Shown in pieces: positions 16,511-34,798 of a stretch of 56,960 nt of DNA. The notes below the pieces were generated by a model that saw only the letters and a program-made list of their open reading frames with translations, searched no databases and was not told the DNA's origin. The stretch lies in UHGV virus genome UHGV-1359774; one strand, given 5' to 3'. Each line of letters opens with the position of its first letter. The stretch's first letter is position 1. The position numbers were made by a program, and so were the translations under genes. Source of the stretch: a virus.

Positions 16511-16541
16511 CGGCGAGAAGATTAAACACTCACTTTTTTTA
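16511..16541 (-). promoter_or_regulatory. late-operon motif copy A (AAAAAAGTGAGTGTTTAATC in gene sense), ~30 nt upstream of the I-J start
   Basis: One of three copies of the same motif (see 22338 and 41283). Confidence 0.5.
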
Positions 16542-16620
16542 GGGGGATGGGGCGAAGAGGGTTGACAACGAAGTTGAGAAAGCTGGCGGGAATAGATAGG
16601 TTGGCGGCGAGGGGGGAAAA

Positions 16621-16965
16621 ATGGATATCCAGACGTTTGTCAAAGAGACCTTGGTGCAAATTGCAAACGGCGTTGCCAGTGCACGGGAAGAAGCCAAGAA
16701 AAAGGGAGTGTTGATCGGTCAGCCTTGTCTTGCCGATGAAAAAACAGGGGTAGTGTTTACAGGCATCAATATCGGCGGTGCCAGACCGCATCCATTTATG
16801 GTAAATTTTGACGTTGCGGTGTCCACCACAAAATCAGCAGACGGCGGCCTTAAAATTTTGGAAGTTCTTGGAGTAAAAGGAAACTATGAAAATGCGGCGA
16901 TCAATCGTGTCCGTTTTGAAGTCCCTGTAAGTTGGATTGATCATCAGCCGCGACAACGAGGATAA
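16621..16965 (+). CDS. hypothetical protein
   Basis: ORF at the edge of the cargo island. Confidence 0.3.
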   Translation: MDIQTFVKETLVQIANGVASAREEAKKKGVLIGQPCLADEKTGVVFTGINIGGARPHPFMVNFDVAVSTTKSADGGLKILEVLGVKGNYENAAINRVRFEVPVSWIDHQPRQRG

Positions 16966-17149
16966 TGTCAAGGTCAGCCATTTCTCCAGCACCGGGACGC
17001 CCGACATAAAGATCATCCGTCACAGAACACCGCATGCGCACTCTTTCGATTGAAGGGTGCGCATTAAGAATGCTGGCAATCGCTTCATCCAGCTTTTTGC
17101 CGCTGACCATGTCAAACTGACCTGTTTCCAAGTTTTCCTGCCTGATCAT
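16901..17149 (-). CDS. hypothetical small protein
   Basis: GAGAGG RBS; overlaps the 3' end of the previous ORF on the other strand. Confidence 0.25.
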   Translation of the reverse strand: MIRQENLETGQFDMVSGKKLDEAIASILNAHPSIERVRMRCSVTDDLYVGRPGAGEMADLDIILVVAADDQSNLQGLQNGHD

Positions 17150-17268
17150 ATTCTGCCTCTCTATATCAATGCATATTGATATCTTTATATCCTAATATCC
17201 TGATTTTATCCAGCGAAAGATGCCCGCTACGCCTTGCGACGCTATTGGATTGCTGGTAGGTCGGATGC

Positions 17269-18009
17269 ATGCACAAAATCATCCTCACACTCGTGTTATC
17301 CCTTGTCCCGGCACTGGCTCTTGCCGCTGGCAATACCACCAACGACAGCTTCAGCCAGGCCAAGCGGATGCTTGAGCGTCAGGTCTACCACGATCACCGT
17401 GTGACGCTTTACTGTGGAGCGGAGTTCAACGCTCAGAAGCGCGTGACGCTGCCTGCTGGCTTCACCACGCCCGCGCATGAAAAACGGGCCACCAAAATTG
17501 AATGGGAGCACGCGGTGCCTGCTGAGAACTTCGGCCGCGCCTTTCCAGAGTGGCGAGACGGGCACCCCGAATGCGTCAACCGCAACGGCAAACCATTCAA
17601 GGGCCGTCGCTGCGCAGAGAAGGTCAACATGGAATACCGCCACATGCAGGCGGACATGTACAACCTCTTTCCGGCCATTGGCACGGTGAACGCCGTTCGC
17701 AGCAACAAGCAGTATTCGGCTCTACCCGGCTCTGAATCCGCATTCGGTAGTTGTCCGGCCAAGGTAGATGGCAACCGCTTTGAGCCACCGGACAGGGCCA
17801 AGGGGCAAGTGGCGCGCGCCGCGCTGTACATGGCCGACAGTTACCCAAAGTACCGCTTGAGCCGCCAGCAACAGCAGCTTTTTGAGGCGTGGGATAAGAT
17901 GTTCCCGGTAGATCAATGGGAATGTACGCGGGCCAAAAGGATCGAGAAGCTACAGGGCAACGCGAATGCTAGGGTCAAGCAGCCGTGCCAGCAGGCGGGG
18001 TTGTGGTGA
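17269..18009 (+). CDS. secreted Endonuclease I (EndA/Dns/Vvn family DNA/RNA non-specific nuclease)
   Basis: Signal peptide MHKIILTLVLSLVPALALA; blocks TLYCGAEF, IEWEHAVPAENF, ADMYNLFPAIGTVNAVRSN match the family. Confidence 0.75.
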   Translation: MHKIILTLVLSLVPALALAAGNTTNDSFSQAKRMLERQVYHDHRVTLYCGAEFNAQKRVTLPAGFTTPAHEKRATKIEWEHAVPAENFGRAFPEWRDGHPECVNRNGKPFKGRRCAEKVNMEYRHMQADMYNLFPAIGTVNAVRSNKQYSALPGSESAFGSCPAKVDGNRFEPPDRAKGQVARAALYMADSYPKYRLSRQQQQLFEAWDKMFPVDQWECTRAKRIEKLQGNANARVKQPCQQAGLW

Positions 18010-18183
18010 GGTTTTAAAGGATGCTCAGCTTGACTTTGTGATCAGTCGTCCTTATTGAAAAAGAGAGGGCGGCAAGGTGCTAGAACACCCCACCGCCCGT
18101 GGGACACGTTCTCCGCGATTACTGGAATCGCAAGATTTGCGCCCCGGTAGAAGAAGCGACCTTCTACCGGGGCAACTTGCGTC

Positions 18184-18267
18184 TTAGAGGTTCATCAGAC
18201 GAACCACCAGAGCCGCAAGGATGGCTGCCGCAAGTGCGGCCAACACATCCCGGAGAAAGTGCTTCAT
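18184..18267 (-). CDS. 27-aa hydrophobic peptide (MKHFLRDVLAALAAAILAALVVRLMNL), type-I-toxin-like
   Basis: AAGGAGGA RBS 7 nt from the ATG; single predicted TM helix. Confidence 0.35.
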   Translation of the reverse strand: MKHFLRDVLAALAAAILAALVVRLMNL

Positions 18268-18421
18268 GGGTGTATCCTCCTTTCGGAGAACGCGCCCACG
18301 CGAAAGCTGTAACAGAATCGTCTCGGCCTATCAATGTACCTGCCTTCCCAGCCGCCCGTGAGGCGGCTTTTCGCTTGATTTGACGTCACGCCATGGAGTA
18401 TGGGGGAAAGAGGAGGGTTCT

Positions 18422-18811
18422 ATGCGTAAACTGATCAGTTTGCTGGTGTTGGCTATGGTCGTGGTCGTCGGGGCGGGGTGTGCAAAGCCTGTCTATAAAG
18501 ATTGGATGGCAATGGGCGGGAGCCGTAGCGATGCTACTGTAAAATTGGGGTATACTTGGAATCCTAACAATGAAAAGCCAGAGACAAGCCAGCAGCAAGC
18601 AATTGATTTGGCTAGTCAAAAATGCCAAACTTGGGGATATGAACGCGCTGAGCCGTTTGGTAGTACTTTTAGCAAGTGTACAAGCATGTCATATCAACCT
18701 TTTGCTGGGGTGGTGTGCTACCAAATGCAGGCTGAGGCTGAATTTCAATGCGTAGGGAAATTGCCTCCTGATATTGAAGACGTTTCGAATAAATTGACAA
18801 AAAAGAAATAA
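18422..18811 (+). CDS. lipoprotein (lipobox VGAGC), low GC
   Basis: AGAGGAGGG RBS; signal/lipobox MRKLISLLVLAMVVVVGAGC. Confidence 0.5.
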   Translation: MRKLISLLVLAMVVVVGAGCAKPVYKDWMAMGGSRSDATVKLGYTWNPNNEKPETSQQQAIDLASQKCQTWGYERAEPFGSTFSKCTSMSYQPFAGVVCYQMQAEAEFQCVGKLPPDIEDVSNKLTKKK

Positions 18812-18859
18812 GTAAATGTTTGGATAAGATGCTCAAGATTTAAAGCTAGATTCATAAAG

Positions 18860-18888
18860 TAAGGCCCCTCACGGGGCCTTTCTTTATA
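18860..18888. terminator. bidirectional intrinsic terminator (AGGCCCC-tcac-GGGGCCT, T-runs both sides) between convergent genes
   Basis: Direct reading. Confidence 0.5.
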
Positions 18889-20281
18889 TCACTTTTTTCC
18901 TTACACACACTACCTTTGCCGCAATGCCTAGTTTCGGCATTAGGTTAGTCCAAGTATATATCTGGCTGTCCAGAAGATGATCTTTAGTTTTTACCTCTAC
19001 TAAAAGCATTTCTTTACCATCAAATGCAAAAATATCGGGCCAGCCGATAGAATTATCTTGCGGATTTTCAAGAACCATTTCAAGAAGCTGATGAAAGCGA
19101 TCCCATCCAAGACCGTCTAACACTGCTTCTATATCTTCAAGCGTTAGCCCGCTGAACCATTTTTTCAATGAAGCGTCTGTATAAATGTCTTGCCAATTTT
19201 GTAATAGTTCTTGTTTTATAGAAAATTTGACATCTTGAATGACATCAACTTTATTAAGTCCATACATATTGATTTGCACGTTAAACGTTCTAGCCCTGTA
19301 ATTTTCTTCAAATAATGCTTTTGATTTTTCTGCAATATAATTAAGACAACCAGCTTGCATGAGCTGCATTATTGGGTGCAATTCATATGTTGTTCCTTTA
19401 TACCCTTGGTGACGCAAATGCCACATTACGGCATCTTCTGGTCTTTTTATTTTTACCGTATCGCTAAGAATATATTTCTTTTCAGTATTATTCCATTGTA
19501 TTTCTAAATATTCCAATTTTATATTATTATTTTTACACTGTTCTTCAAGAAATTTATTATTATTTGCATTTGTTTTATCTACATCTCCTTGTTTTTGTTT
19601 ATCATTTTTTGTAATCAATTTATTTTTTAATTCTGTTGCCTTAAGAATACGTTTTTCCCACTTCCATTCTTCTCCGCTACCTATCAACACACCATAACAG
19701 TTTGTTATCTTTTTAAATTCTTGATGATCTTTATTTAATTCCAGTGCTCTTTGACACGCTTCTATTTCAAGGTCATAATTTTTCAATTTACGAGCTAATA
19801 TAGCTACTCGAAGATATGGTTCTAGACTTATCCATCCGCCAGTAGCATATAAATATAATTCTGATTTATCGCATTCTATGAACCTATTATTTAGTTCTAG
19901 CCTAGTTATTTCATTATCGTCTTCGGAGACAATGTCATATTCACTAAGAGATTTACGCAATTGACCAAAATATAAGTTTTGTGGATTCGGATTTTTTGAT
20001 GGATAGAATTTAAATTCCCCATCTTCTTCTTTTAATTCTCCATATAATCCGCAAAATTCACATTCTAAGTTGAAAAAAATAGAGCCAATTATATTTGCCT
20101 GTTTTCCGCAATTTGGACATGCGGCAGTCAATCCTGCATTGCTATATAGTTGAGTTAAGTTATTTGATAAATTCAATTCACCGCTATCTGTTATTTTATT
20201 ACCATTGACACCTTCAGGCATACTGTCATTGGAAGTTGACTTTTTACCCCATCCACTAAATAACCGCTTTAAAAAATTCAT
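18884..20281 (-). CDS. zinc-ribbon / helical / C-terminal VRR-NUC (PD-(D/E)xK) nuclease protein, very low GC
   Basis: C-terminal block GWPDIFAFDGKEMLLVEVKTKDHLLDSQIYTWTNLMPKLG matches VRR-NUC; N-terminal CPNCG...CEFCG; GGGAGGGGGGG RBS before the ATG at 20281; gene is ~30 % GC against ~60 % nearby. Confidence 0.6.
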   Translation of the reverse strand: MNFLKRLFSGWGKKSTSNDSMPEGVNGNKITDSGELNLSNNLTQLYSNAGLTAACPNCGKQANIIGSIFFNLECEFCGLYGELKEEDGEFKFYPSKNPNPQNLYFGQLRKSLSEYDIVSEDDNEITRLELNNRFIECDKSELYLYATGGWISLEPYLRVAILARKLKNYDLEIEACQRALELNKDHQEFKKITNCYGVLIGSGEEWKWEKRILKATELKNKLITKNDKQKQGDVDKTNANNNKFLEEQCKNNNIKLEYLEIQWNNTEKKYILSDTVKIKRPEDAVMWHLRHQGYKGTTYELHPIMQLMQAGCLNYIAEKSKALFEENYRARTFNVQINMYGLNKVDVIQDVKFSIKQELLQNWQDIYTDASLKKWFSGLTLEDIEAVLDGLGWDRFHQLLEMVLENPQDNSIGWPDIFAFDGKEMLLVEVKTKDHLLDSQIYTWTNLMPKLGIAAKVVCVRKKVI

Positions 20282-20425
20282 CCCCCCCCTCCCCATACAA
20301 AATAATCTAAAAAGGTTTTCGATTACTCCATCTCGTAGATAAAGCTACCAGTTACCAAATATCCGCTCAACAATTTTCTTGACTCGGCGGTGATTTTGTG
20401 GCGTCAAAGGCACAGGAGGGGAATT

Positions 20426-20767
20426 ATGAAAAAAATAGTTTTCTTACTGATCGCGTTGGCAATCTTCATCATGCCTTCAGGAAATTCTTTTGCTCAAAAT
20501 TGCGACAAAGCTGAAGCTCAAAAAATTATCGATGCTCTCGTTTCTGGAGGTTTGGCAGAGCGTCAAGATACTCCAGGAAGCATTACTGTCTGGTATATTT
20601 GGAAAGCAAATTGGTATGGAATGCCAAAGGAAAAACAGTATAGCATGATTTCTGGCTTGGGCGGCGTTGAGCAATGTCTCAAACCGGGAAGAGCTGTTAG
20701 AATTCGAGTTGCCGGTAAAGACGTTGCAAGGGCCAGCTCTACGGGAAAAATCGAATTGTTAGACTAA
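20426..20767 (+). CDS. small secreted protein (signal peptide), low GC
   Basis: AGGAGGGG RBS; MKKIVFLLIALAIFIMPSGNSFA. Confidence 0.45.
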   Translation: MKKIVFLLIALAIFIMPSGNSFAQNCDKAEAQKIIDALVSGGLAERQDTPGSITVWYIWKANWYGMPKEKQYSMISGLGGVEQCLKPGRAVRIRVAGKDVARASSTGKIELLD

Positions 20768-20822
20768 GTTAATATATTTTTATGTACCATTAAGATGGAA
20801 TTTGCATCCGGTGTTCAATGAA

Positions 20823-20849
20823 AGCCCTGCCGAAGCAGGGCTTTTTCTT
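20823..20849 (+). terminator. intrinsic terminator AGCCCTGC-cgaa-GCAGGGCT-TTTTT
   Basis: Direct reading. Confidence 0.5.
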
Positions 20850-21136
20850 GACTTCAATCTTTTTTCGTGCTTCCATTTCTTCACGGTGCTTGAAAACACC
20901 CTCTGGCGGCAACGCCACCCGACAGTTTGGCGCTTTTTTGTGCCCTTTTCCCAAAGTCAAGATTTTTCTTGATGATGTTTTGGGCTAGAATTGCAACCAT
21001 TGTTGCCGGGTGTCCCCGATATGTCCAGGCCGCGAGGCTAAAGGCGGGGAGCAGCTCCAGAGGCTGTTTTCAACACCCGGCATTTTCTATTGGAGAGAAT
21101 GCCTTGTGAACCTTGAAAAGTTCCTCTGGAGGCATC

Positions 21137-22057
21137 ATGAACATCTCCCTCACCTTCAACGAAATTTCTTTCACACCCGTCACCCACCAAAACAGTCTTT
21201 GGATTCGTGCAGCAGAACTTGCCCACGCTTTGGGTTTTGCGCGCGAAGATAAGGTTACTCAAATCTATCAGCGGCATGCCGACGAGTTTACGCCGGATAT
21301 GACGCAACTTATTGAAAACGCCGTAGAACCTCAAAATGGGGTTCAGGGTAATTTAGCTCCTGGCCGCTGCCGCATCTTCTCCCTTCGCGGCTGCCACCTC
21401 CTTGCCATGTTCGCGCGCACGCCCGTAGCCAAGGCGTTTCGCAAGTGGGTGCTGGATGTGCTGGACAGGCTGGCGGCTGAAGAACGAGCCACCCTGCCGT
21501 CTTCCGGCACGCTGACGCCGGAGCAGCAGGCCCAGCTACAGGCCATCGTGGCGGCCAAGGCCGGGATGGTCCCGGCATCTCATCGTCGCAGGGCGTTTCA
21601 GGAAATCTGGGCGCGCTTCAACAACAATTTCCAGATCGCGCGCTATGCCCAGCTTCCCCCAGCCAGAATAGGCGAGGCTGTGGAATATCTGGTGAGCATG
21701 GAGGTCAAGGCGGCCAAGGCCCTGCCGCCAACCGACAAGGAATCCTTGACAGTTGCCGCGTCCACGGCCCTCGCCTTCCGCGCGGATTTTCCCGACGACA
21801 TGGGCAGTGACCGCAAGGAGGCCATGCAGCGGATCGAGCGCATTGCACGCGAGATGCACACCAGCTTTACCGTGGTGCGCAATATCGTCCGCCTTGGCTG
21901 CCATCCGGGCAGCAAGACCATGCGCATGAGTCTGGACGAGCGGGAGGCATATGAAACCCTCCACAACCTCTATACCACTGCGGACGAAAGCCTGTGCGCC
22001 GCCTACAACGCCCTTGACGCCGGGTACAAGCTGGGCCGCCTGTACGGGCGTGGGTAG
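21137..22057 (+). CDS. phage antirepressor, AntA/AntB N-terminal domain family
   Basis: GGAGG RBS; ISFTPVTHQNSLWIRAAELAHALGF resembles the AntA N-domain. Confidence 0.55.
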   Translation: MNISLTFNEISFTPVTHQNSLWIRAAELAHALGFAREDKVTQIYQRHADEFTPDMTQLIENAVEPQNGVQGNLAPGRCRIFSLRGCHLLAMFARTPVAKAFRKWVLDVLDRLAAEERATLPSSGTLTPEQQAQLQAIVAAKAGMVPASHRRRAFQEIWARFNNNFQIARYAQLPPARIGEAVEYLVSMEVKAAKALPPTDKESLTVAASTALAFRADFPDDMGSDRKEAMQRIERIAREMHTSFTVVRNIVRLGCHPGSKTMRMSLDEREAYETLHNLYTTADESLCAAYNALDAGYKLGRLYGRG

Positions 22058-22066
22058 GGGGCCGTC

Positions 22067-22285
22067 ATGGATACCCCTGCCATCAACATGTACCAGCGCA
22101 TGGCCCTGCTGGCCCTGATCGATGTGGAATCCGCGCGAGTGGCTGTGGGACAGCGCGAACGCCGGGCGGCCAGGCATCGGCTCTTTGCCCTGATCCGGGA
22201 GCGGTACGGCGAGAAGTACACCAAACTGCCGCCGAGAGTATTCAGAGAGACGGCGCACTGGCTCATTGATGGGCCGCTGAACTAA
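22067..22285 (+). CDS. hypothetical protein
   Basis: ORF coupled to the antirepressor gene. Confidence 0.3.
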   Translation: MDTPAINMYQRMALLALIDVESARVAVGQRERRAARHRLFALIRERYGEKYTKLPPRVFRETAHWLIDGPLN

Positions 22286-22291
22286 CTGAGG

Positions 22292-22328
22292 GGCCGGGCG
22301 CTTATGGCGTCCGGCCTTTTATTTTTTT
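22292..22328 (+). terminator. intrinsic terminator (GGCCGGGCGC-ttatg-GCGTCCGGCC then TTTTATTTTTTT)
   Basis: Direct reading. Confidence 0.6.
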
Positions 22329-22337
22329 CTGCCCCCC

Positions 22338-22369
22338 CCAAAAAAGTGAGTGTTTAATCTGTTTTTGCC
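22338..22369 (+). promoter_or_regulatory. late-operon motif copy B (CAAAAAAGTGAGTGTTTAATCTGTTTTTGCC), ~50 nt upstream of the tape-measure gene
   Basis: Identical over 30 nt to copy C. Confidence 0.5.
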
Positions 22370-22410
22370 GTCATGCGGGCGCTAGAGTTTTCCCAAAAAG
22401 GAGAAAGCGT

Positions 22411-25400
22411 ATGCCCGGAATCGTCGTTGGAATTGATGTCAGCGAGTTCAATAAAAAACTTTCCGCCGCCCAGCAGGCCGTGAATGGCCTGTCCAGCGTT
22501 CTGAAGGTCGTGCCGCGTGAAGCTCTGAAAACTGCCGCTGCGCTAAATGACACAGGAAAAAACTTCAAAAATACGGCTGATAATTCAGCAACATTTTCTA
22601 AAGAATTGAATGGAGCCAGTAGCGCCGCCCAAAAAGCAGCCCTGAATATCAAATCCCTTGGGGCGCGAATTTTGGCGTTAGTAGGGGCCTACAAGGCGCT
22701 AGAAGGAATCAAGGGATATTATCAAAATATCATAAATTTTAACAGCAGCATTGAATCCTCTACAATTTCTATTGCATCTGTTCTTGGCGCTACCAACAAA
22801 ATAGCCACCGCCGAAGGAAAAAGCCTTGAGGGCATTGAAAAATTCAATGCTGCTCAAAAAATTTCCGCCGAGCTTATGGAACAAATTCAGGTTTTGGCCC
22901 TTGAATCGACAGCGACGTTTGAGGGCCTCGCTGATGGTGTTTCAGGCATCATTGCTCCGGCCACAAAAGCGGGGATAGCCATTGAGAAATTGCCCAAATT
23001 CGCCGTTACCGCAGCGCAAGCCATGGCTGCGATGAAGATTCCAACGCAGCAAATGCGGACGGAGATTGAGGCTCTTTTGAGTGGCAATATCAACAAAGTA
23101 CAAGATATCCTTGCGACAAACCTTGGCATCACGGGGGAAATGGTCAAGAATTGGCAAAAACAGGGCACGCTTATCGAGGAGCTTGAAAAAAGGCTTCGTA
23201 TTTTTGCAGAAGCGGGAAAAGCGTCTGCACAAACATGGTCAGGGTTAGTCAGCAATTTGAATGATGCCTATGATTATCTTTCAGCAAAAACTGGAAAGGG
23301 CATCTTTGAGGGGATGAAACAGTCATTCCGCGAATTATTGGATATTCTTGTCAATACGAAAGGAAAACTTGGCGTTGGCGAAGACATACAAAACATTGTA
23401 AAAATGGTTACAGAACTCCAAGATGAAATAGGAAATGGACTTATATCTGTAACAAGAGATTTTATTGACGATATTAAAGAACTGAATAAGCCGGAAAATA
23501 TAGCAGACATAAAAAGAGGATTTTCAGAATTTAAAAATACCCTAACTGGTACATTTGATATTTTGAAAAGTGTTGTATCTACACTGAAAGATGCAATATC
23601 TTTTTCCCTCAAGGGATGGAGTGACGCCCCTGACATCATTAAAGAAATGGGGCTAATCGGAGCGATTGCCCTTGGGGCAAAAGGGAGAATAGCACTCCTC
23701 GCCATTGGCGCTGCTGCTGAAGGCTTGGAACGGCTACAAGCCGTAATGTACAAATTGGGGATGTCAAGCTCATCAGACGTCACTTCTCAAATGCTAAAAA
23801 CAGCGGGCTATCTTGACCAGTCAGAACTTTACGATACCGGGCCGTCTTTAGCATCAACAAGAAAACCCAAAACACAACCCCCGGCGCTTTCCAATTCACA
23901 CGGAGCCCCTGCGTTGGCGAGTTCTCATGGCACAGAGTCAAATTCGGGACGCGAAAAATACAAGACAGGAAATGATATTGGTGGTTTTGGCGGAGAAAAC
24001 AAGGGGCAGTCGAAAATTGAGAACGCCCAAGAGAAAATAAAGCGATTGCGCGAAGAAATAAACCGCCTCAACGACGATGCCAGCAAAGCGGGCAACAGCC
24101 TCGACCAGAAGCTCAGAGAAATTGAGAAACTCGGTGAGTCAGCCGGACTGTCTGCGTCTGAAGTAAGTCAACTCAAGACGGAGTATACGCAGGCATTCAA
24201 GGCGGACACCCTCAAAGAATTTGATAAGGCGTTGCTGGAAGCACAAGGCGACACACAGGCGCTGCAACAGATCAAAATTGATGAAACGATGCAGACATGG
24301 GGTGCGCAGTTTAGCCAACTCAATACGAAATTAAGTGAGCTTGGATTGGCGACAATCGATGCCACTCCGAAGCTTGAAGAGATGCGTAAGGCCCTTGAGC
24401 ATGAACAAAACACCAAAAACCTCCAAGTCACCGCCGACTTTTACAAGCAGCTTGCCGAATACTCCGGCGACTACAACCTGTCTATGGAATACCAGAACCG
24501 GCTCATTGAGATTCAGGGCCAGAACTGGATTCAAAACGGCATAGCCATGAATGATGTCATCAAGATGCAGGAGCTTATGCGACAGGAGGCGGCCCGCGAT
24601 CCGTGGTCCGGCATGCTGCGCGGGATGCGCAAATGGAGCGGAGAAGCCACCAACCTTGGCAAACAGGTGGAAACGTCCCTGACATCCGCCTTTGATAACG
24701 CTTCCGACGCCCTGGCCGACTTCGTCACCACCGGCAAGCTGAACTTCGCGGACCTGGCGAACAGTATTATTTCCGACTTGGCGCGTATCGCGGCGCGGCA
24801 GGCCATCGGCGGCATTGTGGGGGGCCTGGCGAGCGGCTTGGGCAACCTGTTCGGCGGCAGCTATACCGATACGGCTAAAAACATGGTGAACTATATCCCT
24901 GGCGTGAATTTTTCCGCCAAGGGCAACGTCTTTTCCGGCGGCAACATCTCGGATTACTCCAATTCCATCGTCTCGCGGCCCACTCTCTTCAGCTACGGCT
25001 CCCAGCTGCAGCCCTTCGCGCGCGGGGCCGGATTGATGGGCGAAGCCGGGCGGGAAGCTATCCTGCCTTTGGCGCGCACCAGCGGCGGCAATCTCGGCGT
25101 ATATGCCACCTTTGAGCAACGGCAGCTGCAACGCGACATGGACAGTCTCAAGGCGTCCATGAACACCGTAGAGGCAATCATACTGAGCCATAAGGCGCAA
25201 CGCGAGGCGGCAGCCGCGCCCGCGCCGGAAGTCAAGGTTAACATCATCAACAACAGCAACGCACAGGTCACGCAGGAAACGCGCACAGACAACTACGGCA
25301 ACAAGACCATTGACGTAATGGTCGGCGACGCGGCGGCCCGGCAACTCAATCGGCCCGGCACCACTCTGAACAAATCCTTCTACCAGCAAACCGGCCTGCA

Positions 25401-25422
25401 ACGCAGGGCCATCAGGAGGTAA
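22411..25422 (+). CDS. tail length tape-measure protein
   Basis: 1003 aa, long helical low-complexity protein; AAGGAGAAA RBS; followed by M/L/K homologues. Confidence 0.8.
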   Translation: MPGIVVGIDVSEFNKKLSAAQQAVNGLSSVLKVVPREALKTAAALNDTGKNFKNTADNSATFSKELNGASSAAQKAALNIKSLGARILALVGAYKALEGIKGYYQNIINFNSSIESSTISIASVLGATNKIATAEGKSLEGIEKFNAAQKISAELMEQIQVLALESTATFEGLADGVSGIIAPATKAGIAIEKLPKFAVTAAQAMAAMKIPTQQMRTEIEALLSGNINKVQDILATNLGITGEMVKNWQKQGTLIEELEKRLRIFAEAGKASAQTWSGLVSNLNDAYDYLSAKTGKGIFEGMKQSFRELLDILVNTKGKLGVGEDIQNIVKMVTELQDEIGNGLISVTRDFIDDIKELNKPENIADIKRGFSEFKNTLTGTFDILKSVVSTLKDAISFSLKGWSDAPDIIKEMGLIGAIALGAKGRIALLAIGAAAEGLERLQAVMYKLGMSSSSDVTSQMLKTAGYLDQSELYDTGPSLASTRKPKTQPPALSNSHGAPALASSHGTESNSGREKYKTGNDIGGFGGENKGQSKIENAQEKIKRLREEINRLNDDASKAGNSLDQKLREIEKLGESAGLSASEVSQLKTEYTQAFKADTLKEFDKALLEAQGDTQALQQIKIDETMQTWGAQFSQLNTKLSELGLATIDATPKLEEMRKALEHEQNTKNLQVTADFYKQLAEYSGDYNLSMEYQNRLIEIQGQNWIQNGIAMNDVIKMQELMRQEAARDPWSGMLRGMRKWSGEATNLGKQVETSLTSAFDNASDALADFVTTGKLNFADLANSIISDLARIAARQAIGGIVGGLASGLGNLFGGSYTDTAKNMVNYIPGVNFSAKGNVFSGGNISDYSNSIVSRPTLFSYGSQLQPFARGAGLMGEAGREAILPLARTSGGNLGVYATFEQRQLQRDMDSLKASMNTVEAIILSHKAQREAAAAPAPEVKVNIINNSNAQVTQETRTDNYGNKTIDVMVGDAAARQLNRPGTTLNKSFYQQTGLQRRAIRR

Positions 25423-25424
25423 AC

Positions 25425-25808
25425 ATGGGCGCAATCTGGCCCCCTGCCCTGCCGCAACGCCCGCAGCGAAGCGGCTACAAATCGCAGTACCCGAACCAGC
25501 TTATCCGTTCCGATATGGACAGTGGCCCGGCCAAGGTGCGCCGACGCGGCAACGCCAAGCCGGTGACGCTCTCTCTGACCTATGTGCTCAATGCGGAGCA
25601 ATTGGCGGTTTTCAAGGATTTTGTCTCGGAAGCCATCGCGGAGGGCGCGGTCTGTTTCGACTGGCCGCATCCGGTGCTCAACCGTTATGTCCGGGCGCGC
25701 CTAGTGGGACAAAATTCGTCCATCTACGACGAACAACTGTTCGGCGATACCTTGGACTGGCAGATAACCTTAACACTGGAGTACTGGCCCGATGCCCCTC
25801 TCACCTAA
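25425..25808 (+). CDS. minor tail protein M-like
   Basis: GGAGG RBS; size and blocks (GYKSQYP...VTLSLTYVLNAEQLAVFKDF) parallel lambda gpM. Confidence 0.5.
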   Translation: MGAIWPPALPQRPQRSGYKSQYPNQLIRSDMDSGPAKVRRRGNAKPVTLSLTYVLNAEQLAVFKDFVSEAIAEGAVCFDWPHPVLNRYVRARLVGQNSSIYDEQLFGDTLDWQITLTLEYWPDAPLT

Positions 25809-26313
25809 AGCGCTTTCGGTCATCTTGGAGCCATCCACTGAAGAGCGAGAAATCGGCCTGATTACCATGACCCACGCCAAGTGGGCGGAGCCTATCCGCT
25901 TGTCCACGGATGCCACGGAATGGCTGCGCAACGATGAAAAGAGCGGCGAACCGATTTACTGCACCAAAAGCCGGGGAGAAATCTATCTGTACGCGCCCAT
26001 GAATGCCGTACTGCCGGATTCCAGCGAGGAGTCCCCGCCCACCGGCAAGGTGACGTTCTCCAACGTGGGCCGCATCGTCACACCGTATCTGACGCTGGTA
26101 GACAGCAAGTATCCGCGCGTAACCCTGGAAGTGGTGTTGGCTTCCAGTCCTGACATCGTGGAAGTATGCTATCCGGAACTCGATCTTTCTTCAGCCAACT
26201 GGGACAGTCAGACGGCGGAAGTCTCCATGTCCATGAACATCGTCGCCCATGAACCCATGCCCTGGCTGCGCTTCGTGCCCGCCTATTTTTACAACATCAC
26301 TGCCGGAGAGTAA
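25792..26313 (+). CDS. minor tail protein L-like (by position)
   Basis: Position between the M-like and K-like genes. Confidence 0.4.
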   Translation: MPLSPKALSVILEPSTEEREIGLITMTHAKWAEPIRLSTDATEWLRNDEKSGEPIYCTKSRGEIYLYAPMNAVLPDSSEESPPTGKVTFSNVGRIVTPYLTLVDSKYPRVTLEVVLASSPDIVEVCYPELDLSSANWDSQTAEVSMSMNIVAHEPMPWLRFVPAYFYNITAGE

Positions 26314-26314
26314 T

Positions 26315-26719
26315 ATGGACCTGCGCAAATATATCGGCATCCCGTTTCGGGACCACGGGCGCGGCTTTGACGGTTGCGATTGCTGGGGCTTGTGTATGCT
26401 GGCCTACCGCGAGGAACTTGGCCTGGAACTGCCGGACCTGGGCGACGCGTACTCCGAAGCCTATGCCCGCGGCGAAGTGGACGCGACAGTCAGGCGCACC
26501 GTGTCGGAATCCTGGAACCTTGACGTGACCGGCGGCCCGTATCTGCCCCTGGACGTGATGATATTCAGCCGGGGCGGCGAGGATTGCCATGTGGGGCTAT
26601 GGGTGGCCCCCGGAGAAATGCTGCATGTTATTGAGGGCATCGACGCCTGCCTGGAACGCTTCGATAGCGCGCGATGGAAACGCAAGCTCTCGCGGGTTAT
26701 CCGGCACCGGCAGCGCTAA
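26315..26719 (+). CDS. tail assembly protein K-like, NlpC/P60 Cys-His peptidase domain
   Basis: GCDCWGLCMLAY ... HVGLWV ... H pattern; GGAGAG RBS. Confidence 0.55.
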   Translation: MDLRKYIGIPFRDHGRGFDGCDCWGLCMLAYREELGLELPDLGDAYSEAYARGEVDATVRRTVSESWNLDVTGGPYLPLDVMIFSRGGEDCHVGLWVAPGEMLHVIEGIDACLERFDSARWKRKLSRVIRHRQR

Positions 26720-26927
26720 AGGCCCTGTCCAGCGCATCCCGGCTCGTCTGGCTCAATGTACCGCAAATGCCGCAGCATTCGCCATCGGGACTACCCATGC
26801 CCTGACAAAATACGCGGCACCAGACGGGGCGCGGCGCGTCATCAGCCATCGCTTCGCCGCGCGGCAGCTTTCCGTCTATCTCGATAAGAGCGCGCACCAG
26901 GCACACGGCATCCAAGGCATCGGCCAT
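26697..26927 (-). CDS. hypothetical protein
   Basis: GGAGTGAGG RBS; overlaps the 3' end of the K-like gene. Confidence 0.25.
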   Translation of the reverse strand: MADALDAVCLVRALIEIDGKLPRGEAMADDAPRPVWCRVFCQGMGSPDGECCGICGTLSQTSRDALDRAFSAAGAG

Positions 26928-26932
26928 AATCC

Positions 26933-27143
26933 TCACTCCATGGGCCAAACGCCGTCATAGCAGCCGTCAAGAGCCTTGGTGTGATTCTGAGGCCAGAACT
27001 TGCGGGGACAAATGCCTGTATCCGCGTCCGAAGCGCTGGAGTCCTCCCGTAGCGGAATCCAGATGGCGCACACGCCACAGACCAGATAAGGGCGTGCATC
27101 CGGTTTAGAGCCGTCAGAGACAGGCGCACAGGCCGCCTTACAC
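26933..27143 (-). CDS. hypothetical Cys-rich protein
   Basis: ATG overlaps the stop of the upstream gene (ATGTGTAA). Confidence 0.2.
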
Positions 27144-27335
27144 ATCAGCGGCAGCCTTTTTGGCAGACTTGCGCGGCTTCTGCCGGGCAGGCGCGGAAAG
27201 CGGCTCCACACTCTGTTCAAGCTGGACCGCCTTCGCATCACGTGATTGACTGACCACCTTCACCGGCCTGGGCAGTGGCGTGTTCACGCCCAGAGCCAGG
27301 CAAAGACGCCGTAAAAACAAGATATTCACATCCAT
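27138..27335 (-). CDS. hypothetical small basic protein with Lys/Ala-rich tail
   Basis: AAGAGGA RBS. Confidence 0.35.
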   Translation of the reverse strand: MDVNILFLRRLCLALGVNTPLPRPVKVVSQSRDAKAVQLEQSVEPLSAPARQKPRKSAKKAAADV

Positions 27336-27385
27336 GTCCTCTTATAGCGCCCCGGCCAGGCACGATACCCAGCCGGGGCGCACCG

Positions 27386-27616
27386 TCAGCGCGCGACTTC
27401 TTCCGAAGCCGTGACAATCGCCAACAGCATTACCGCTATCTCTTCCAGTTGCCGCAGCGACGGCACGCGGCCACGGGTCTTGTAAGCCATGAACATCGGC
27501 GCGCCTTCACGGATCACCTTGTTCAAGACATCCCGAGAGCTGCGCTCCCGTTCCATGGTCCGCGCGACATCATCTTCAACACGGTCCATGACCCGGCGCA
27601 GGGCGTCGTCACTCAT
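27386..27616 (-). CDS. hypothetical protein
   Basis: Start overlaps the stop of the upstream gene. Confidence 0.35.
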   Translation of the reverse strand: MSDDALRRVMDRVEDDVARTMERERSSRDVLNKVIREGAPMFMAYKTRGRVPSLRQLEEIAVMLLAIVTASEEVAR

Positions 27617-28127
27617 GGCTCACCTCGCCGATAGGCATGCTTTCGCCTTCTTCTTGCGCCTCTTCCCCGCTCTCCGGGGCCGGGGGCTGAAAAAGATCGC
27701 TTGCCCATGTTTCCTTCGGCCCCTGTGCGCGGGACTCTTCCGCCACAGTGCCGAAAAGGGAATCAACAAAACCCTGTGCAGGGTCTGTGCTTTGGTGCTT
27801 GGGCGTGGCCGCATAGCAGATCATGTTACCCGGCTGCAACAGGTCAAACGGGATTGGCCTGTCCGACAGCCGGAAGAACAGATATTGCCGCGCGGGCGTG
27901 GTCGTGCCTGGAATCGGCGGCTGTTGCATGACAACATAGCTGAAGACCATCTTGCCCTTGTCGCTCACCGTCACCTGCTGGCTGTTCCGCGCAATGCAGT
28001 GCATACGCGAAACATTGGGTTCCATGCCATAGCGCGGATCAGCGTCCGCAGGCAGGTTGGGAATGTAGACCAGGGAATAGTCCACTACGCCGTCGCTGAA
28101 ACGGGCCGGAAGAGGCAGTTTGCTCAT
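27609..28127 (-). CDS. hypothetical protein
   Basis: Start 2 nt after the stop of the upstream ORF. Confidence 0.4.
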   Translation of the reverse strand: MSKLPLPARFSDGVVDYSLVYIPNLPADADPRYGMEPNVSRMHCIARNSQQVTVSDKGKMVFSYVVMQQPPIPGTTTPARQYLFFRLSDRPIPFDLLQPGNMICYAATPKHQSTDPAQGFVDSLFGTVAEESRAQGPKETWASDLFQPPAPESGEEAQEEGESMPIGEVSHE

Positions 28128-28131
28128 GGTT

Positions 28132-28468
28132 ACACCTTTGCCCTTTCGGGCTGGCTTTGGGTTTCTTCCTTTTTCATGAGATGGGCGCGGGCCTGGGCCG
28201 CAGCCGAAGCCACATGCCCAAGCTCACGGATAGCGTCACGAATGCAGCCGGTTCCGGCCTTGTAGGCGTCCACGGCCTTTTTCGCTTCGCCGTATTCCAT
28301 CTCCACAATGCCCCAGTATTCGCCCTTGGCGAGATAGGGCGGCCATGTGGGCGGCGGGCTGTTTACGGTATCCCATTCGAAGTTCAGGGTTTCGCGTAAA
28401 TAATCACCGCCGCCCCGAGGTTCTCGGTCAGCTTCTTCAGCTTGGTTTTCATCCCGTCCGTGACCGTC
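28132..28468 (-). other. open frame continuing in phase directly after the TGA of the Arg/Asp-rich ORF (possible recoding, extension domain, or separate gene with a non-ATG start)
   Basis: The frame stays open ~110 codons after the TGA at 28472-74 and keeps an R/D/E/G-rich composition (ADGHGRDENQAEEADREPRGGGDY...). Confidence 0.3.
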
Positions 28469-28471
28469 CGC

Positions 28472-28882
28472 TCAGTCATAGCCGTCGTCATCGTCGTAAT
28501 ATTCCCGCTCACGGCGGCTACGACGCTCACGGCGGCGTTCACGGTCGTTTTCGTCCTCGTAGTAGCGGCGCTCACGCTCCGGGTCCACGAAGCCCTGAGT
28601 CTGCCAGTCGTCCTCGCGGTAACGGCGGCGGCCCATGTCATCGTGCTCGTCGCCGCGATAGCCCCAGTCCTCGTGATCGTCGTTGTACTCGTGGCGACGG
28701 CGGCGGAATTCGCCGTAGCGATTGCGCGGGGGCAGACGCCGGGCCTCATAGCGGCCGCCGTCCTCCTCCATGCGCATCCGGCTCCGGCCGCCGGAACCGC
28801 GACGATAATCGTATTCGTAACGGTCATCGTCGCGCCGGTCGTCCCGTCCGCCATCACGGCGCATCATGATTCGCATGGTCAT
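28472..28882 (-). CDS. Arg/Asp/Glu/Tyr-rich low-complexity protein (136 aa)
   Basis: GGAGG RBS 6 nt upstream; G/C-rich third positions in this frame; the hydrophobic antisense ORFs are artefacts of GAC/CGC codons. Confidence 0.5.
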   Translation of the reverse strand: MTMRIMMRRDGGRDDRRDDDRYEYDYRRGSGGRSRMRMEEDGGRYEARRLPPRNRYGEFRRRRHEYNDDHEDWGYRGDEHDDMGRRRYREDDWQTQGFVDPERERRYYEDENDRERRRERRSRREREYYDDDDGYD

Positions 28883-28893
28883 AGCATGCCTCC

Positions 28894-29706
28894 TTACGCG
28901 GTGGGCGTGGTGGTAGAGGCCGTGCGGATCGCGGCCATGTGACCAATGATGTTCACGGTGTTGGCGTTCATTTCATTGCGCAGCTGCGAACCCAGACCAG
29001 CCACAGCCTGGGCCGTGAAGTTCTGGGCTTCCATGGACGCAATCTTGGACTTGGCGTCACAGAGCTGGGTTTGCAGGTTTTCGTAAGCGTAGCGGTCGAT
29101 CAGCTGACGCGTGGCCGAACCTTCGGCCATAATGGTGCGCTGCGTGGTGCAGCAGCAATCATTGATGGCGCTGGTGACCTGATTGGTGCTCTGGCAGGAC
29201 AGCAGGGCATTGTCCTTGCTGGAACTCAGGATGGCCGTGTTGACGCCGTTGAAGCCCTGACAGAGGCTGTTCTGAAGCGACTGGTCACCGGAGACGATGG
29301 TGGAATTCAGGCCCGCAAAGCCCTGAGTCAGGGTGTTGTTCACGCTGGCGGTCTGCGCGGCGGTTTCAGCGGCAAGACCGCCGAAGCCCTGGCAGGCGGC
29401 CAGATTCGCGGCGTTCTGGCCCTGCAAGACCTGCAATCCAACGCCATTAATGCTGGTCTGGATGCCGCTCAGCGCGTCCAGCTCAGCGGTGGAAGCGGTG
29501 CCGCCGCCGGGATTCCCGGCGATAATCACCGAAGGAGCGCCGCCGCCGGAATTGCAGCAGCCGCCATTGCCGCCGTTGTTGCCAAAGCCGTTGCCCCACC
29601 AGGAGCCGAACAGCGCCCCGGCAAAGGCTCCAACAGCATCGCCCCAGCCGTTGTTGTTGCCGCCGTCATTGACCGAAAAAGTGGGGACAAACCCGTCCAT
29701 GCCCAT
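28894..29706 (-). CDS. Gly/Asn/Gln/Ser/Thr-rich protein with CC and CCC clusters and QGF(x)G(x)N repeats (~271 aa from the ATG with RBS)
   Basis: GGAGG RBS before MGMDGF; own promoter upstream and a terminator before that. Confidence 0.5.
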   Translation of the reverse strand: MGMDGFVPTFSVNDGGNNNGWGDAVGAFAGALFGSWWGNGFGNNGGNGGCCNSGGGAPSVIIAGNPGGGTASTAELDALSGIQTSINGVGLQVLQGQNAANLAACQGFGGLAAETAAQTASVNNTLTQGFAGLNSTIVSGDQSLQNSLCQGFNGVNTAILSSSKDNALLSCQSTNQVTSAINDCCCTTQRTIMAEGSATRQLIDRYAYENLQTQLCDAKSKIASMEAQNFTAQAVAGLGSQLRNEMNANTVNIIGHMAAIRTASTTTPTA

Positions 29707-29764
29707 AGCAATACCTCCAAAGTTTTTCCCGGCGGGATGCCGGGCTTTGAAAAGATGATGGGCC

Positions 29765-29794
29765 AATGGATGGATTCTTACTAACTACGGATGG
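29765..29794 (-). promoter_or_regulatory. sigma70-like promoter TTGTCG-N17-TAAGAAT for the Gly-rich/RD-rich operon
   Basis: Direct reading of the minus strand. Confidence 0.4.
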
Positions 29795-29840
29795 TTACGA
29801 CAAAGTATGGGTGGGATATGGATAGCGTTTTTTTGAACAT

Positions 29841-29869
29841 GAAAAAGCCGGGCATTTAAGGTGCCCGGC
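29841..29869 (-). terminator. intrinsic terminator (GCCGGGCA-loop-TGCCCGGC then TTTTT) after the Zn-ribbon gene
   Basis: Direct reading. Confidence 0.55.
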
Positions 29870-29874
29870 CGTGG

Positions 29875-30081
29875 TCATTCCAGCTTTGCTTTCCGGACTG
29901 GACGCAATCTGCCTTCCGGGCGTTCCAGCATGTACCGCGCGCCGCATTCCTTGTTCTGGCATGTCCAGTAGGAAACGCGCGAATATTCGAGAGGATGGCC
30001 ATCAAGGCCGATGGAAATCGTTCTGGTGCATTTTAAGGATTGCAGCCCGCATTTTGGGCAAAATTGTCTGCTGGTCGCCAT
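29875..30081 (-). CDS. small zinc-ribbon protein (CPKCG...CQNKEC)
   Basis: ORF followed by an intrinsic terminator. Confidence 0.4.
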   Translation of the reverse strand: MATSRQFCPKCGLQSLKCTRTISIGLDGHPLEYSRVSYWTCQNKECGARYMLERPEGRLRPVRKAKLE

Positions 30082-30245
30082 GGTGCAAGCCCCTTGGCTC
30101 GCCCCGACCGCCCTATGGATTTTTTTATCAATTTCCGATTAACTACGCAGGGCGGATACTCTGCAAGCGGCTTCCCTCCGCTTGTGGGGCCGTGGGGATG
30201 CGTTGCTGCGCATCTCCGGCGGGGGCGCGTGAAGCCCCCGCCCCT

Positions 30246-30605
30246 CTACCGCTTTTGGGCGCGTGCCCTGTTGTTCCGTTCTTCTTTTTTGTGGCGCTCC
30301 GCGTTTTTCAGGTCAACAAATTGCGCATCCAGGAGCCGCAGCCGCCACAGCAGTTCTTCCGGCTCGGCATGACGCGCGATCTCCGCTAAAAGGGCCTCAT
30401 GCCGGATTGCCAGGGTTGCGCCCGTCATGTTGTCCACCGGCGCGCCATGCTGCCGCAGCATGTGCCATATCCGCATCGCTTCCTCGTTACGCGGACTCAG
30501 CGGCCAATGTCGGGTACAGTTGGCGCAATCTTGCTTCTCTTTGTGTATCCAACGGCAGTCATTGCATGTGGGCCGGTCGCCAAATTGCCAACCGGCCCAC
30601 TCCAT
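30246..30605 (-). CDS. tail assembly chaperone T-part (-1 frame extension, G-T fusion)
   Basis: Starts inside the stop of the G-like ORF (TGATG); slippery A_AAA_AAC heptamer. Confidence 0.5.
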   Translation of the reverse strand: MEWAGWQFGDRPTCNDCRWIHKEKQDCANCTRHWPLSPRNEEAMRIWHMLRQHGAPVDNMTGATLAIRHEALLAEIARHAEPEELLWRLRLLDAQFVDLKNAERHKKEERNNRARAQKR

Positions 30606-30970
30606 CAGTTTTTTTCTTCTTCCAGCCGCCCTTCACGCGCGATATGCTTTAAACGGCCATACTGCCGGTCCATGAAGGCATTTTCGACGTCGCAGAGTTC
30701 GGCCACCATGTCGGGGCTGAACGGCAGCGGTTCATTGTTCAAATCCATCAAACCGTCCCAACCCACAATCTGCGTCTGCATGACCACGGGCAGGATTCTG
30801 AGCCCGGCCAGATCGGTGTCATAGCCGCATTCGGCCATGACCTTTTTTACCACCTCTTGCTGCGCCGTGGCAGACAGGGGCTTGCAAAGAAAATACGCCT
30901 GGCCGTCCGGCGTCAGATCCATGCGAAAAACCTTTTCCTGATATTTCCTGGTCAGAACCGTGAAGGCCAT
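30605..30970 (-). CDS. tail assembly chaperone G-like
   Basis: AAGGAG RBS; position after the tube gene; slippery site at its 3' end. Confidence 0.55.
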   Translation of the reverse strand: MAFTVLTRKYQEKVFRMDLTPDGQAYFLCKPLSATAQQEVVKKVMAECGYDTDLAGLRILPVVMQTQIVGWDGLMDLNNEPLPFSPDMVAELCDVENAFMDRQYGRLKHIAREGRLEEEKN

Positions 30971-30972
30971 GT

Positions 30973-32118: not shown

Positions 32119-32119
32119 T

Positions 32120-32578: not shown

Positions 32579-32580
32579 GG

Positions 32581-32979: not shown

Positions 32980-33024
32980 GTCAGCTTCTTCAGCTTGGTT
33001 TTCATCCCGTCCGTGACCGTCCGC

Positions 33025-33435: not shown

Positions 33436-33446
33436 AGCATGCCTCC

Positions 33447-34259: not shown

Positions 34260-34427
34260 AGCAATACCTCCAAAGTTTTTCCCGGCGGGATGCCGGGCTT
34301 TGAAAAGATGATGGGCCAATGGATGGATTCTTACTAACTACGGATGGTTACGACAAAGTATGGGTGGGATATGGATAGCGTTTTTTTGAACATGAAAAAG
34401 CCGGGCATTTAAGGTGCCCGGCCGTGG

Positions 34428-34634: not shown

Positions 34635-34798
34635 GGTGCAAGCCCCTTGGCTCGCCCCGACCGCCCTATGGATTTTTTTATCAATTTCCGATTAACTACG
34701 CAGGGCGGATACTCTGCAAGCGGCTTCCCTCCGCTTGTGGGGCCGTGGGGATGCGTTGCTGCGCATCTCCGGCGGGGGCGCGTGAAGCCCCCGCCCCT

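Follow-up and report, generated by a model that had tools for sequence, protein, structure and literature searches.

The virus genome UHGV-1359774, analysed here as a single window of 56,960 nucleotides (the whole stretch of DNA under study), carries a nuclease gene of low GC content in an island of accessory genes, and the locus raises the question of what kind of enzyme is encoded there and what purpose it serves. An earlier reading made from the letters alone (the sequence-only reading) had described a low-GC insert encoding a lipoprotein, a zinc-ribbon/VRR-NUC nuclease and a small secreted protein, and had suggested a recently acquired module for exclusion, defence or anti-defence. The analyses presented below demonstrate that the nuclease is a distant relative of FAN1 and that its gene lies, with that of the lipoprotein, on a mobile AT-rich moron cassette (18380..20393) in an accessory-gene hot spot of a temperate siphovirus, the cassette being an allelic alternative to one that encodes the defence nuclease SNIPE. 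The reading favoured here, to which a probability of about 0.5 is given, is that the enzyme is a membrane-tethered anti-phage exclusion nuclease analogous to SNIPE. The host is probably a member of the Desulfovibrionaceae, Bilophila or another, as judged from the 76-78% similarity of the terminase to assemblies of Bilophila and Desulfovibrionaceae.

A FAN1-like nuclease

The nuclease gene is located on the minus strand at 18884..20281 and encodes 465 amino acids (aa) plus a stop codon. This version was adopted because GGGGAGGGGGGGG precedes the ATG at 20281 and the public gene call (P0001) likewise gives 465 aa; an alternative ATG is present at 20296, and some alignments are numbered on a 470-aa version in which residue numbers are higher by five. 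From the N-terminus onward, the protein is composed of an amphipathic helix, a disordered linker, a zinc-ribbon-like beta domain (aa 50-96, minus strand 19994..20134; C55-x2-C58 ... C74-x2-C77, with model strands at 52-96 and a confidence of ~80 by the predicted local distance difference test, pLDDT), a TPR-like helical domain (aa 124-228, minus strand 19598..19912) and a FAN1-type extended VRR-NUC domain of the PD-(D/E)xK class (aa 240-465, minus strand 18887..19564), the last delimited by the family profile and by a pLDDT of at least 95. The zinc-ribbon, TPR-like and VRR-NUC architecture recognised from the letters is therefore retained, and is refined to the FAN1 type by profile, model and Foldseek comparisons.

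When the VRR-NUC assignment was checked by profile search, the direct match of the nuclease to Pfam VRR_NUC (PF08774) fell below the gathering threshold (E 0.0021, 18.5 bits against 23.8), and the TPR matches were weaker still; the assignment holds only by way of homologs and structure. Forty-two of the 46 sequences scanned (the nuclease and 45 distant relatives) match VRR_NUC at E <=0.01, the best at 5.8e-21, and three match FAN1_HTH. Against the PDB, the family profile retrieved only FAN1 chains, human and P. aeruginosa (E 6e-17 to 1e-14, over ~200 residues), before a standalone VRR-NUC protein at E 0.26. An AlphaFold model built on a 109-sequence alignment has a mean pLDDT of 84.7, and at least 95 over residues 240-465 (a single-sequence model with a mean of 34 was discarded, and only the alignment-based model was used); when this model was compared with the PDB using Foldseek, all 23 significant matches were FAN1, with 374-421 aligned columns.

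The catalytic residues are D416 (19034-19036), E429 (18995-18997) and K431 (18989-18991), together with E300 and Q440. In the 470-aa numbering, E305, D421, E434, K436 and Q445 are invariant in a 12-sequence family alignment, and in the profile match the GWPD(421)...VE(434)VK(436)...Q(445) of the nuclease aligns with GLPD...VEVK...Q of human FAN1. The protein thus displays a VRR-NUC catalytic signature, an extended nuclease domain of ~200 aa (the standalone module has ~100 aa) and a TPR directly N-terminal to it; in its C-terminal two-thirds, a TPR is joined to a FAN1-type nuclease whose active site is intact. The N-terminal part departs from this pattern: no Pfam match to the SAP or FAN1_HTH (PF21315) domain was found at E up to 1, and a beta-rich ribbon, whose four cysteines are aligned in seven of ten full-length homologs and which gives a weak match to the eS27 zinc ribbon, precedes the TPR. 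For these reasons the enzyme is a distant, FAN1-like relative rather than a FAN1 orthologue, and it is not a generic phage VRR-NUC protein. PADLOC, PHROGs and NCBIfam searches with the nuclease gave nothing significant, the best match being a PHROG Holliday-junction resolvase at E 0.075.

Compared with characterised proteins, the nuclease falls by fold within the FAN1 (KIAA1018) branch of VRR-NUC; its combination of domains is new, as is its setting. As in human FAN1 and P. aeruginosa PaFAN1 (PDB 4R89, 5Y7G), the C-terminal domain is an extended, monomer-type VRR-NUC with GxPD...ExK...Q, and a TPR-like helical domain stands before it. Unlike FAN1, the cassette nuclease is without SAP/HTH and UBZ domains and has an amphipathic helix and a CxxC...CxxC ribbon instead; it is shorter (465 aa, against ~560 for PaFAN1 and 1017 for human FAN1), shares 12-18% identity with FAN1 across the structural alignments, and is encoded on a swappable AT-rich prophage cassette, whereas FAN1 is a chromosomal repair gene. 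Standalone VRR-NUC proteins (PF08774, e.g. PDB 4QBN, 93 aa), a type that structurally resembles Holliday-junction resolvases (PMC4103454), measure ~90-170 aa (BFVD matches, 87-173 aa) and differ from the cassette nuclease, which has a FAN1-type helical extension, TPR, ribbon and membrane motif. The TseV effectors of type VI secretion systems are also VRR-Nuc nucleases employed in biological conflict, structure-specific and toxic in cells, but they form a clade distinct from FAN1 and have PAAR-like delivery domains and DUF3396 immunity partners (PMC9635880), whereas the cassette nuclease has neither a delivery domain nor an immunity gene.

An exchangeable cassette in a slot shared with SNIPE

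The drop in GC content to about 30-45% noted earlier is confirmed: 300-bp windows at 18650-20750 have a GC content of 0.28-0.45, against 0.56-0.63 on both sides, and the lowest-GC 2014-bp window across the 57 kb starts at 18801 (GC 0.351; mean 0.559, standard deviation 0.051). The nuclease gene has a GC content of 0.325, and of 0.242 at third codon positions (GC3), while GC3 is 0.72 in the Endonuclease I, Bro-N and J-like genes. The island as a whole is located, as had been described, between divergent late genes, with the J-like tail gene (minus strand) on one side and the tape-measure gene (plus strand) on the other. Within it, the nuclease gene runs opposite to its neighbours and has terminators on both sides. 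A terminator-like hairpin with a T-run (18350..18368, plus strand; 7-bp stem with six GC pairs, tail TTTCGCTTGA) lies just before the left cassette boundary, and a GC-rich hairpin detected in a terminator scan, AAGGCCCC-TCAC-GGGGCCTT (18861..18880), serves as shared terminator between the convergent lipoprotein and nuclease genes, 3 nt past the nuclease stop codon (18884-18886). A third hairpin, AAAGCCCTGC-CGAA-GCAGGGCTTT followed by TTCTT (20821..20848, plus strand), is found 3' of the secreted-protein gene; it was read by eye from the letters, and the consensus terminator scan did not list it. The bracketing of these genes by terminators, one of them shared, is accordingly as first proposed.

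The limits of the cassette were established using sister prophages, which were located on eight contigs (L018-L025) through a homolog (P0148, 99% identical) of the secreted protein, whose relatives are closer than those of the nuclease. On the left, DNA homology reaches 18379 in L019 and L020, with a flank identity of 86-98.5%; on the right, it resumes exactly at 20394 in all eight contigs, and the right flank, including the secreted-protein gene, is 98-99.7% identical in L018, L023 and L024 and ~92% identical in the other sisters. Between 18379 and 20394 the sisters hold unrelated DNA, and the nuclease is absent from all eight. The exchangeable unit is thus 2014 bp long (18380..20393, GC 0.363) and contains two genes, for the YecR lipoprotein and the FAN1-like nuclease, with the 112 bp that precede the nuclease start. 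These alignments, together with that to the related locus L001, uphold the notion of a foreign insert among prophage cargo and shorten the extent originally given to it (18380-20850), since sister homology has already resumed at 20394.

In seven of the eight sisters the slot is occupied by another AT-rich cassette, on the same strand as the nuclease, that encodes a 149-aa charged protein, a 530-aa protein and a YbjQ_1 protein; the eighth, L022, has other small genes. The GC content of this cassette is 0.39, and that of the 530-aa gene 0.33 (measured in L018 and L020). In L018, the 530-aa protein has a transmembrane helix at the N-terminus and DUF4041 and T5orf172/GIY-YIG domains, and matches the PADLOC model PD-Lambda-1 at E 3e-142. 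PD-Lambda-1 has been renamed SNIPE; this membrane-bound nuclease cleaves phage DNA while it is being injected, is kept from self-cleavage by its membrane anchor and leaves prophage induction unaffected (10.1101/2025.11.03.685801). Because both flanks are common to the window and the sisters while the interval between them is unrelated, the YecR and FAN1-like nuclease cassette is an allelic alternative to the SNIPE cassette.

A second, gene-level swap of the nuclease is apparent from the comparison with L001, in which YecR is 92% and Endonuclease I 89% identical to the window proteins, whereas the nuclease (P0002) is 38.5% identical and DNA homology ends at the nuclease stop codon, 18887. Nor do lipoprotein, nuclease and secreted protein constitute the three-gene block that had been envisaged: the secreted-protein gene belongs to the backbone in sisters without the nuclease and is absent beside the homologs of L001, L003 and L009, and the 92% of YecR contrasts with the 38.5% of the nuclease. 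A conserved operon of the three genes was accordingly rejected on the sister and L001 comparisons. Low GC content, which had been taken as a sign of recent acquisition, was likewise rejected as proof of it, since all homologs, down to ~30% aa identity, are AT-rich (GC 0.27-0.45). Flank GC is 0.47-0.57 in eight of nine loci, and the gene lies below its flank except in L004, where the flank (0.40, a 1.2-kb sample) is slightly below the gene. Low GC is thus a trait of the nuclease family, and recency is better shown by the 98-99.7% flanks of L018, L023 and L024.

The family is very rare. Exhaustive searching of 1.84 billion representatives with HMMER recovered 146 relatives, of which 13 had E<1e-30; only ~10 full-length relatives have the complete architecture, the remainder matching the C-terminal 220 residues alone. 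A word-indexed search of 5.8 billion proteins found two, one identical and one of 39% identity, and a scan of 185,579 species genomes with a single peptide pattern, by which absence is not proven, gave 600 pattern matches and no confirmed relative. IMG/VR contains one relative-bearing contig (L009), the viral structure predictions of BFVD gave nothing at E up to 1e-3, and a megablast comparison of the 22 kb surrounding the locus with 50,697 annotated phage records gave no match. Because the family is so rare in protein, genome, IMG/VR and BFVD searches, the nuclease is not core phage equipment.

All loci with enough flanking sequence are in a phage or an integrase-linked element; one relative, present on two contigs (L004 and L005), adjoins an integrase. 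As in the window, a Bro-N or P22_AR_N/ORF6C antirepressor gene adjoins the homologs of L001, L003, L007, L008, L009 and L026, and such loci are usually also near a tape-measure gene and toxin-antitoxin genes. The surroundings of the hot spot include HicAB, YhaV, BrnT, PemK, DUF2442/DUF4160, Endonuclease I, morons and antirepressors. In most loci the immediate neighbour is a lipoprotein gene of varying family (in L007, a signal-peptide protein): YecR in the window and L001, DUF4410 in L003 and L009, and unrelated ones in L006, L015 and L016. The lipoprotein and nuclease genes are convergent in most loci and in tandem in L006 and L016, and no lipoprotein gene lies beside the homolog in L004, L008 or L026.

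Several variants of these arrangements were observed. In L016 (1102-2396), just downstream of a lipoprotein gene, the nuclease gene is interrupted at the linker between domains, giving two overlapping open reading frames (ORFs), one for the zinc ribbon and TPR (207 aa) and one for the nuclease domain (224 aa); this may represent a natural two-chain version or a frameshift. One homolog with the nuclease domain only, P0007, is the second half of a split gene whose first half is the zinc-ribbon/TPR part (33% identity); another, P0006, is probably cut off by the end of its contig. In L007 (1208-2398), the nuclease gene is immediately preceded, on its own strand, by a gene for an AAA_16/AAA_22 ATPase of 396 aa, and the two may form a different, two-gene version of the system. 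Among the sisters, the SNIPE homolog lies in seven of eight (e.g. L018 3194-5896) between the 149-aa protein, which has a glycine-rich N-terminus and a charged remainder, and a 201-208-aa zinc-ribbon and YbjQ_1 protein, both of which may represent SNIPE accessory genes that have gone unrecognised. In L009, too, a YbjQ_1 protein comes after the DUF4410 lipoprotein gene, and YhaV, BrnT, PemK and HicAB toxin genes occur near the sister SNIPE homologs.

A candidate exclusion nuclease and its rivals

The N-terminus of the nuclease consists of an amphipathic, cationic helix, MNFLKRLFSGWGKK (aa 1-14, minus strand 20240..20281), predicted to target the membrane by its identity to a MinD motif and by its hydrophobic moment. 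It contains MNFLKRLF, in which FLKRLF is identical to the core of KGFLKRLFGG, the membrane-targeting sequence of E. coli MinD (PMC5471200), a sequence catalogued among lipid-binding helices (PMC3189734), and its hydrophobic moment (0.75-0.82) exceeds that of all other 10-mers in the protein. A cationic amphipathic N-terminal pattern recurs in eight of ten full-length homologs (e.g. LLKKIFS, FFKRLFG, FIKKIFK, FLTKIFQ), and P0002, the L001 homolog, begins with a true hydrophobic transmembrane helix followed by FFRRFLS. That the full-length subfamily associates with the membrane is, from these motifs, a reasonable prediction.

As in SNIPE, the protein is a single polypeptide with a variable middle and a most-conserved C-terminal nuclease, and an N-terminal membrane anchor, which SNIPE has, is predicted for it. 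Among homologs, identity is 35-40% in the nuclease domain and 21-24% in the N-terminal half, a gradient that resembles the one reported for SNIPE. Both genes have a GC content of 0.33 and occupy the identical slot. The likeness does not extend to sequence or fold: the nuclease has no DUF4041 or GIY-YIG/T5orf172 domain in Pfam and no match to PADLOC PD-Lambda-1, although the same search recovered the sister L018 protein as positive control (DUF4041, T5orf172 and PD-Lambda-1, the last at E 3e-142). It is a PD-(D/E)xK enzyme and SNIPE a GIY-YIG enzyme, and the predicted anchor of the nuclease family is mostly an amphipathic helix, whereas SNIPE is anchored by a transmembrane segment. Because sisters carry a characterised defence nuclease in the same slot, a role in defence or exclusion is the best reading, and that part of the original suggestion stands; its other part, an anti-defence module, finds no support.

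A more specific proposal, advanced tentatively and with somewhat more doubt than confidence, is that a FAN1-family nuclease has been recruited as a membrane-tethered, DNA-end-recognising exclusion enzyme that destroys entering phage genomes. Under the exclusion reading favoured above, the lysogen would make the nuclease from the cassette's own promoter, the N-terminal helix would hold it on the cytoplasmic face of the inner membrane and off the nucleoid, and linear phage DNA would be cut on entry. The leading end of the injected genome would be a natural FAN1-type substrate, the circular chromosome having no such end, and the variable zinc-ribbon/TPR half might act as an adaptor or specificity part that finds the injection site or phage proteins there. 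A 5'-phosphorylated end or flap is where FAN1 enzymes anchor. The scheme agrees with established FAN1 biochemistry, in which the enzyme, anchored at a 5' flap, incises the DNA a few nucleotides inward and has 5'-3' exonuclease activity in addition (summarised in PMC9635880).

A number of points weigh against the exclusion reading. No PADLOC (2023) model matches the nuclease, and the literature searched contains no paper that connects anti-phage defence with a FAN1 or VRR-NUC fold. Since FAN1 enzymes function in the repair of crosslinks, a repair role in the lysogen is possible. A search for a sigma-70-like promoter in the 112 bp preceding the nuclease gene found none, the consensus being one to which promoters of Desulfovibrionaceae may not conform. 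The predicted membrane binding is drawn from a six-residue identity and the amphipathicity of the helix, and AlphaFold confidence is low at residues 1-48. Slot sharing with SNIPE, moreover, shows a hot spot and not a shared mechanism, and counts of genomic context are non-independent, as the homolog loci are mostly in related phages.

Two rival explanations would turn the same enzymatic activity to a different end. The nuclease could be of an abortive-infection or toxin type, held harmless at the membrane or autoinhibited until, upon infection or stress, it is released, degrades all DNA and kills the cell, with no selective cutting of the incoming genome. SNIPE without its transmembrane domain is highly toxic and cuts the chromosome (10.1101/2025.11.03.685801), the VRR-Nuc effectors TseV are lethal structure-specific nucleases (PMC9635880), and the hot spot is rich in toxins (HicA, YhaV, BrnT, PemK); no antitoxin or immunity gene is consistently found beside the nuclease, however, its neighbours being lipoproteins and secreted proteins of varied families that could not neutralise a cytoplasmic nuclease, and since a membrane tether and a single-gene design suit direct defence equally well or better, the toxin-type explanation is considered unlikely. 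Quite unlikely, too, is a DNA repair or recombination enzyme, that is, a flap or crosslink nuclease that aids phage replication or, like bacterial FAN1, survival of host DNA damage. Fold and active site are indeed those of FAN1, a 5'-flap endo/exonuclease of crosslink repair with a cellular homolog in P. aeruginosa, and standalone VRR-NUC proteins are common phage recombination nucleases (PMC4103454). Yet the gene lies in a moron region between tail genes, antisense to its neighbours and bracketed by terminators; it is dispensable, being replaced by SNIPE in sister phages, extremely rare, and diverging far faster than its flanks; and its product has a predicted membrane-targeting N-terminus in place of the SAP/HTH DNA-binding domain of FAN1, which it lacks, and is without a match among the viral structure predictions of BFVD.

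The lipoprotein gene invites the further suggestion of two-component envelope sensing, whereby the lipoprotein detects phage attack and signals to, or positions, a membrane-associated nuclease. A lipoprotein gene is directly beside the nuclease gene in five distinct contexts, and YecR and the nuclease were exchanged together relative to the SNIPE-bearing sisters. The adjacent lipoproteins nevertheless come from unrelated families, in variable orientation (mostly convergent, tandem in L006 and L016), and are missing at L004, L008 and L026, while the 92% identity of YecR beside 38.5% for the nuclease, relative to L001, argues against a co-evolving pair. Prophage lipoproteins are, furthermore, commonly stand-alone exclusion morons, as are T5 Llp and phi80 Cor, and the sensing arrangement is very unlikely; a separate, envelope-level moron is most likely what the YecR lipoprotein beside the nuclease represents. 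Finally, an anti-defence factor acting in the phage's own infection, for example by destroying the nucleic-acid structures of a host defence, would share the accessory position, rapid divergence and low GC typical also of anti-defence genes, which are general points only. The nuclease gene is outside the early-gene region, and its slot holds a bona fide defence gene in sisters. No anti-defence protein is known to have the architecture of the nuclease, a literature search gave no relevant match, and this explanation is highly improbable.

Should the exclusion reading be true, the cassette would show that the SNIPE strategy, which distinguishes self from non-self by location and DNA topology and not by sequence, had been invented a second time, independently, and would provide the first link of the FAN1 lineage to prokaryotic conflict systems. 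SNIPE showed that foreign DNA can be recognised by where and how it enters, and the principle would be general if the nuclease acts alike; defence hot spots would, in addition, exchange functionally equivalent, unrelated enzymes. The nuclease could then also provide a small bacterial model for end and flap recognition of the FAN1 type, FAN1 being a human DNA-repair and Huntington-modifier nuclease. The route of discovery, from a conserved backbone gene to sister prophages and from these to the contents of the slot, yielded a candidate missed by PADLOC (2023) and Pfam, and adds a candidate defence gene for gut Desulfovibrionaceae.

Neighbouring genes and other features of the window

The lipoprotein (18422..18811, plus strand; 129 aa) has a signal peptide with the lipobox VVVGAG before the cysteine, so that the VGAGC lipobox pointed out previously is correct, and belongs to the YecR family: it matches Pfam PF13992 at E 3.6e-14 and 53.3 bits, above the cut-off of 27, and the lipobox LVLAMVVVVGAG followed by C is seen in the translation. 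GAGGAGG lies 6 nt upstream of its ATG. The small signal-peptide protein that had been predicted is also present, as a 116-aa product of a backbone gene outside the cassette (20417..20767, plus strand; signal peptide ending ...NSFA before QN); it has no family match in Pfam, PADLOC, PHROGs or NCBIfam, and 17 homologs of 106-138 aa.

Both cargo neighbours named in the sequence-only reading were found by profile. On the left, the backbone neighbour is a periplasmic, EndA-like Endonuclease I with a signal peptide (17269..18009, plus strand; Pfam PF04231, E 7e-31), which matches NCBIfam deoxyribonuclease I at E 6e-55, under the equivalog cut-off, and is 88-89% identical in L001 and L018. On the right is a Bro-N/ORF6C antirepressor (21131..22057, plus strand), identified by Pfam and by the PHROG anti-repressor family (E 4e-48).

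Two further small genes were noted to the left of the cassette. A 27-aa hydrophobic peptide, MKHFLRDVLAALAAAILAALVVRLMNL, is encoded at 18184-18267 (minus strand) with the ribosome-binding site AAAGGAGG and a strong terminator at 18098-18067; the backbone DNA around its gene is common to L020 (86%) and, from 18242, to L019 (98.5%), and the peptide could be a small membrane toxin or a holin-like peptide. A 114-aa ORF at 16621-16965 (plus strand), with a GC content of 0.467, below that of the backbone, gives a sub-threshold Pfam match to Trypco2 (trypsin-co-occurring domain 2; E 0.0012) and, lying at the island's left edge, looks like one more small gene of the cargo.

A 20-28-nt element, C-rich and followed by AAAAAAGTGAGTGTTTAATCT, occurs three times, at 16519-16546 (minus strand), 22333-22360 (plus strand) and 41292-41311 (minus strand), where none is expected by chance. 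Each copy, in sense orientation, closely precedes a late gene (those for the J-like protein and the tape measure, and the ORF at 40398-41264), and a TATACT-like box is found ~24 nt downstream of the element, which is probably a shared late promoter, activator site or leader element; it was not found in L001-L009. The first two copies form a 28-nt inverted repeat around the 5.8-kb cargo island. An interpretation of this repeat as transposon ends or as the site of an invertible segment was rejected, as the third copy precedes another late gene.

The surrounding DNA also bears marks of rearrangement. A perfect (100%) head-to-tail duplication of 4553 bp in the structural-gene region (28427-32979 / 32980-37532) is explained either by tandem duplication in the very recent past or by an artefact of assembly. 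Compared with the closely related prophage of L001, two blocks within 16547-28300 are each inverted, one comprising the cargo and the other the tape-measure and minor-tail genes; the J-like gene has kept its orientation, and L003 and L009 display a third arrangement; the differences among these loci indicate that the region has been repeatedly rearranged. In the tape-measure gene (22411-25422), the N-terminal third is low in GC (0.33-0.47, at 22550-23750), and resemblance to the L001 protein is confined to the C-terminal half (50% over residues 532-1003), so that the tape measure is mosaic.

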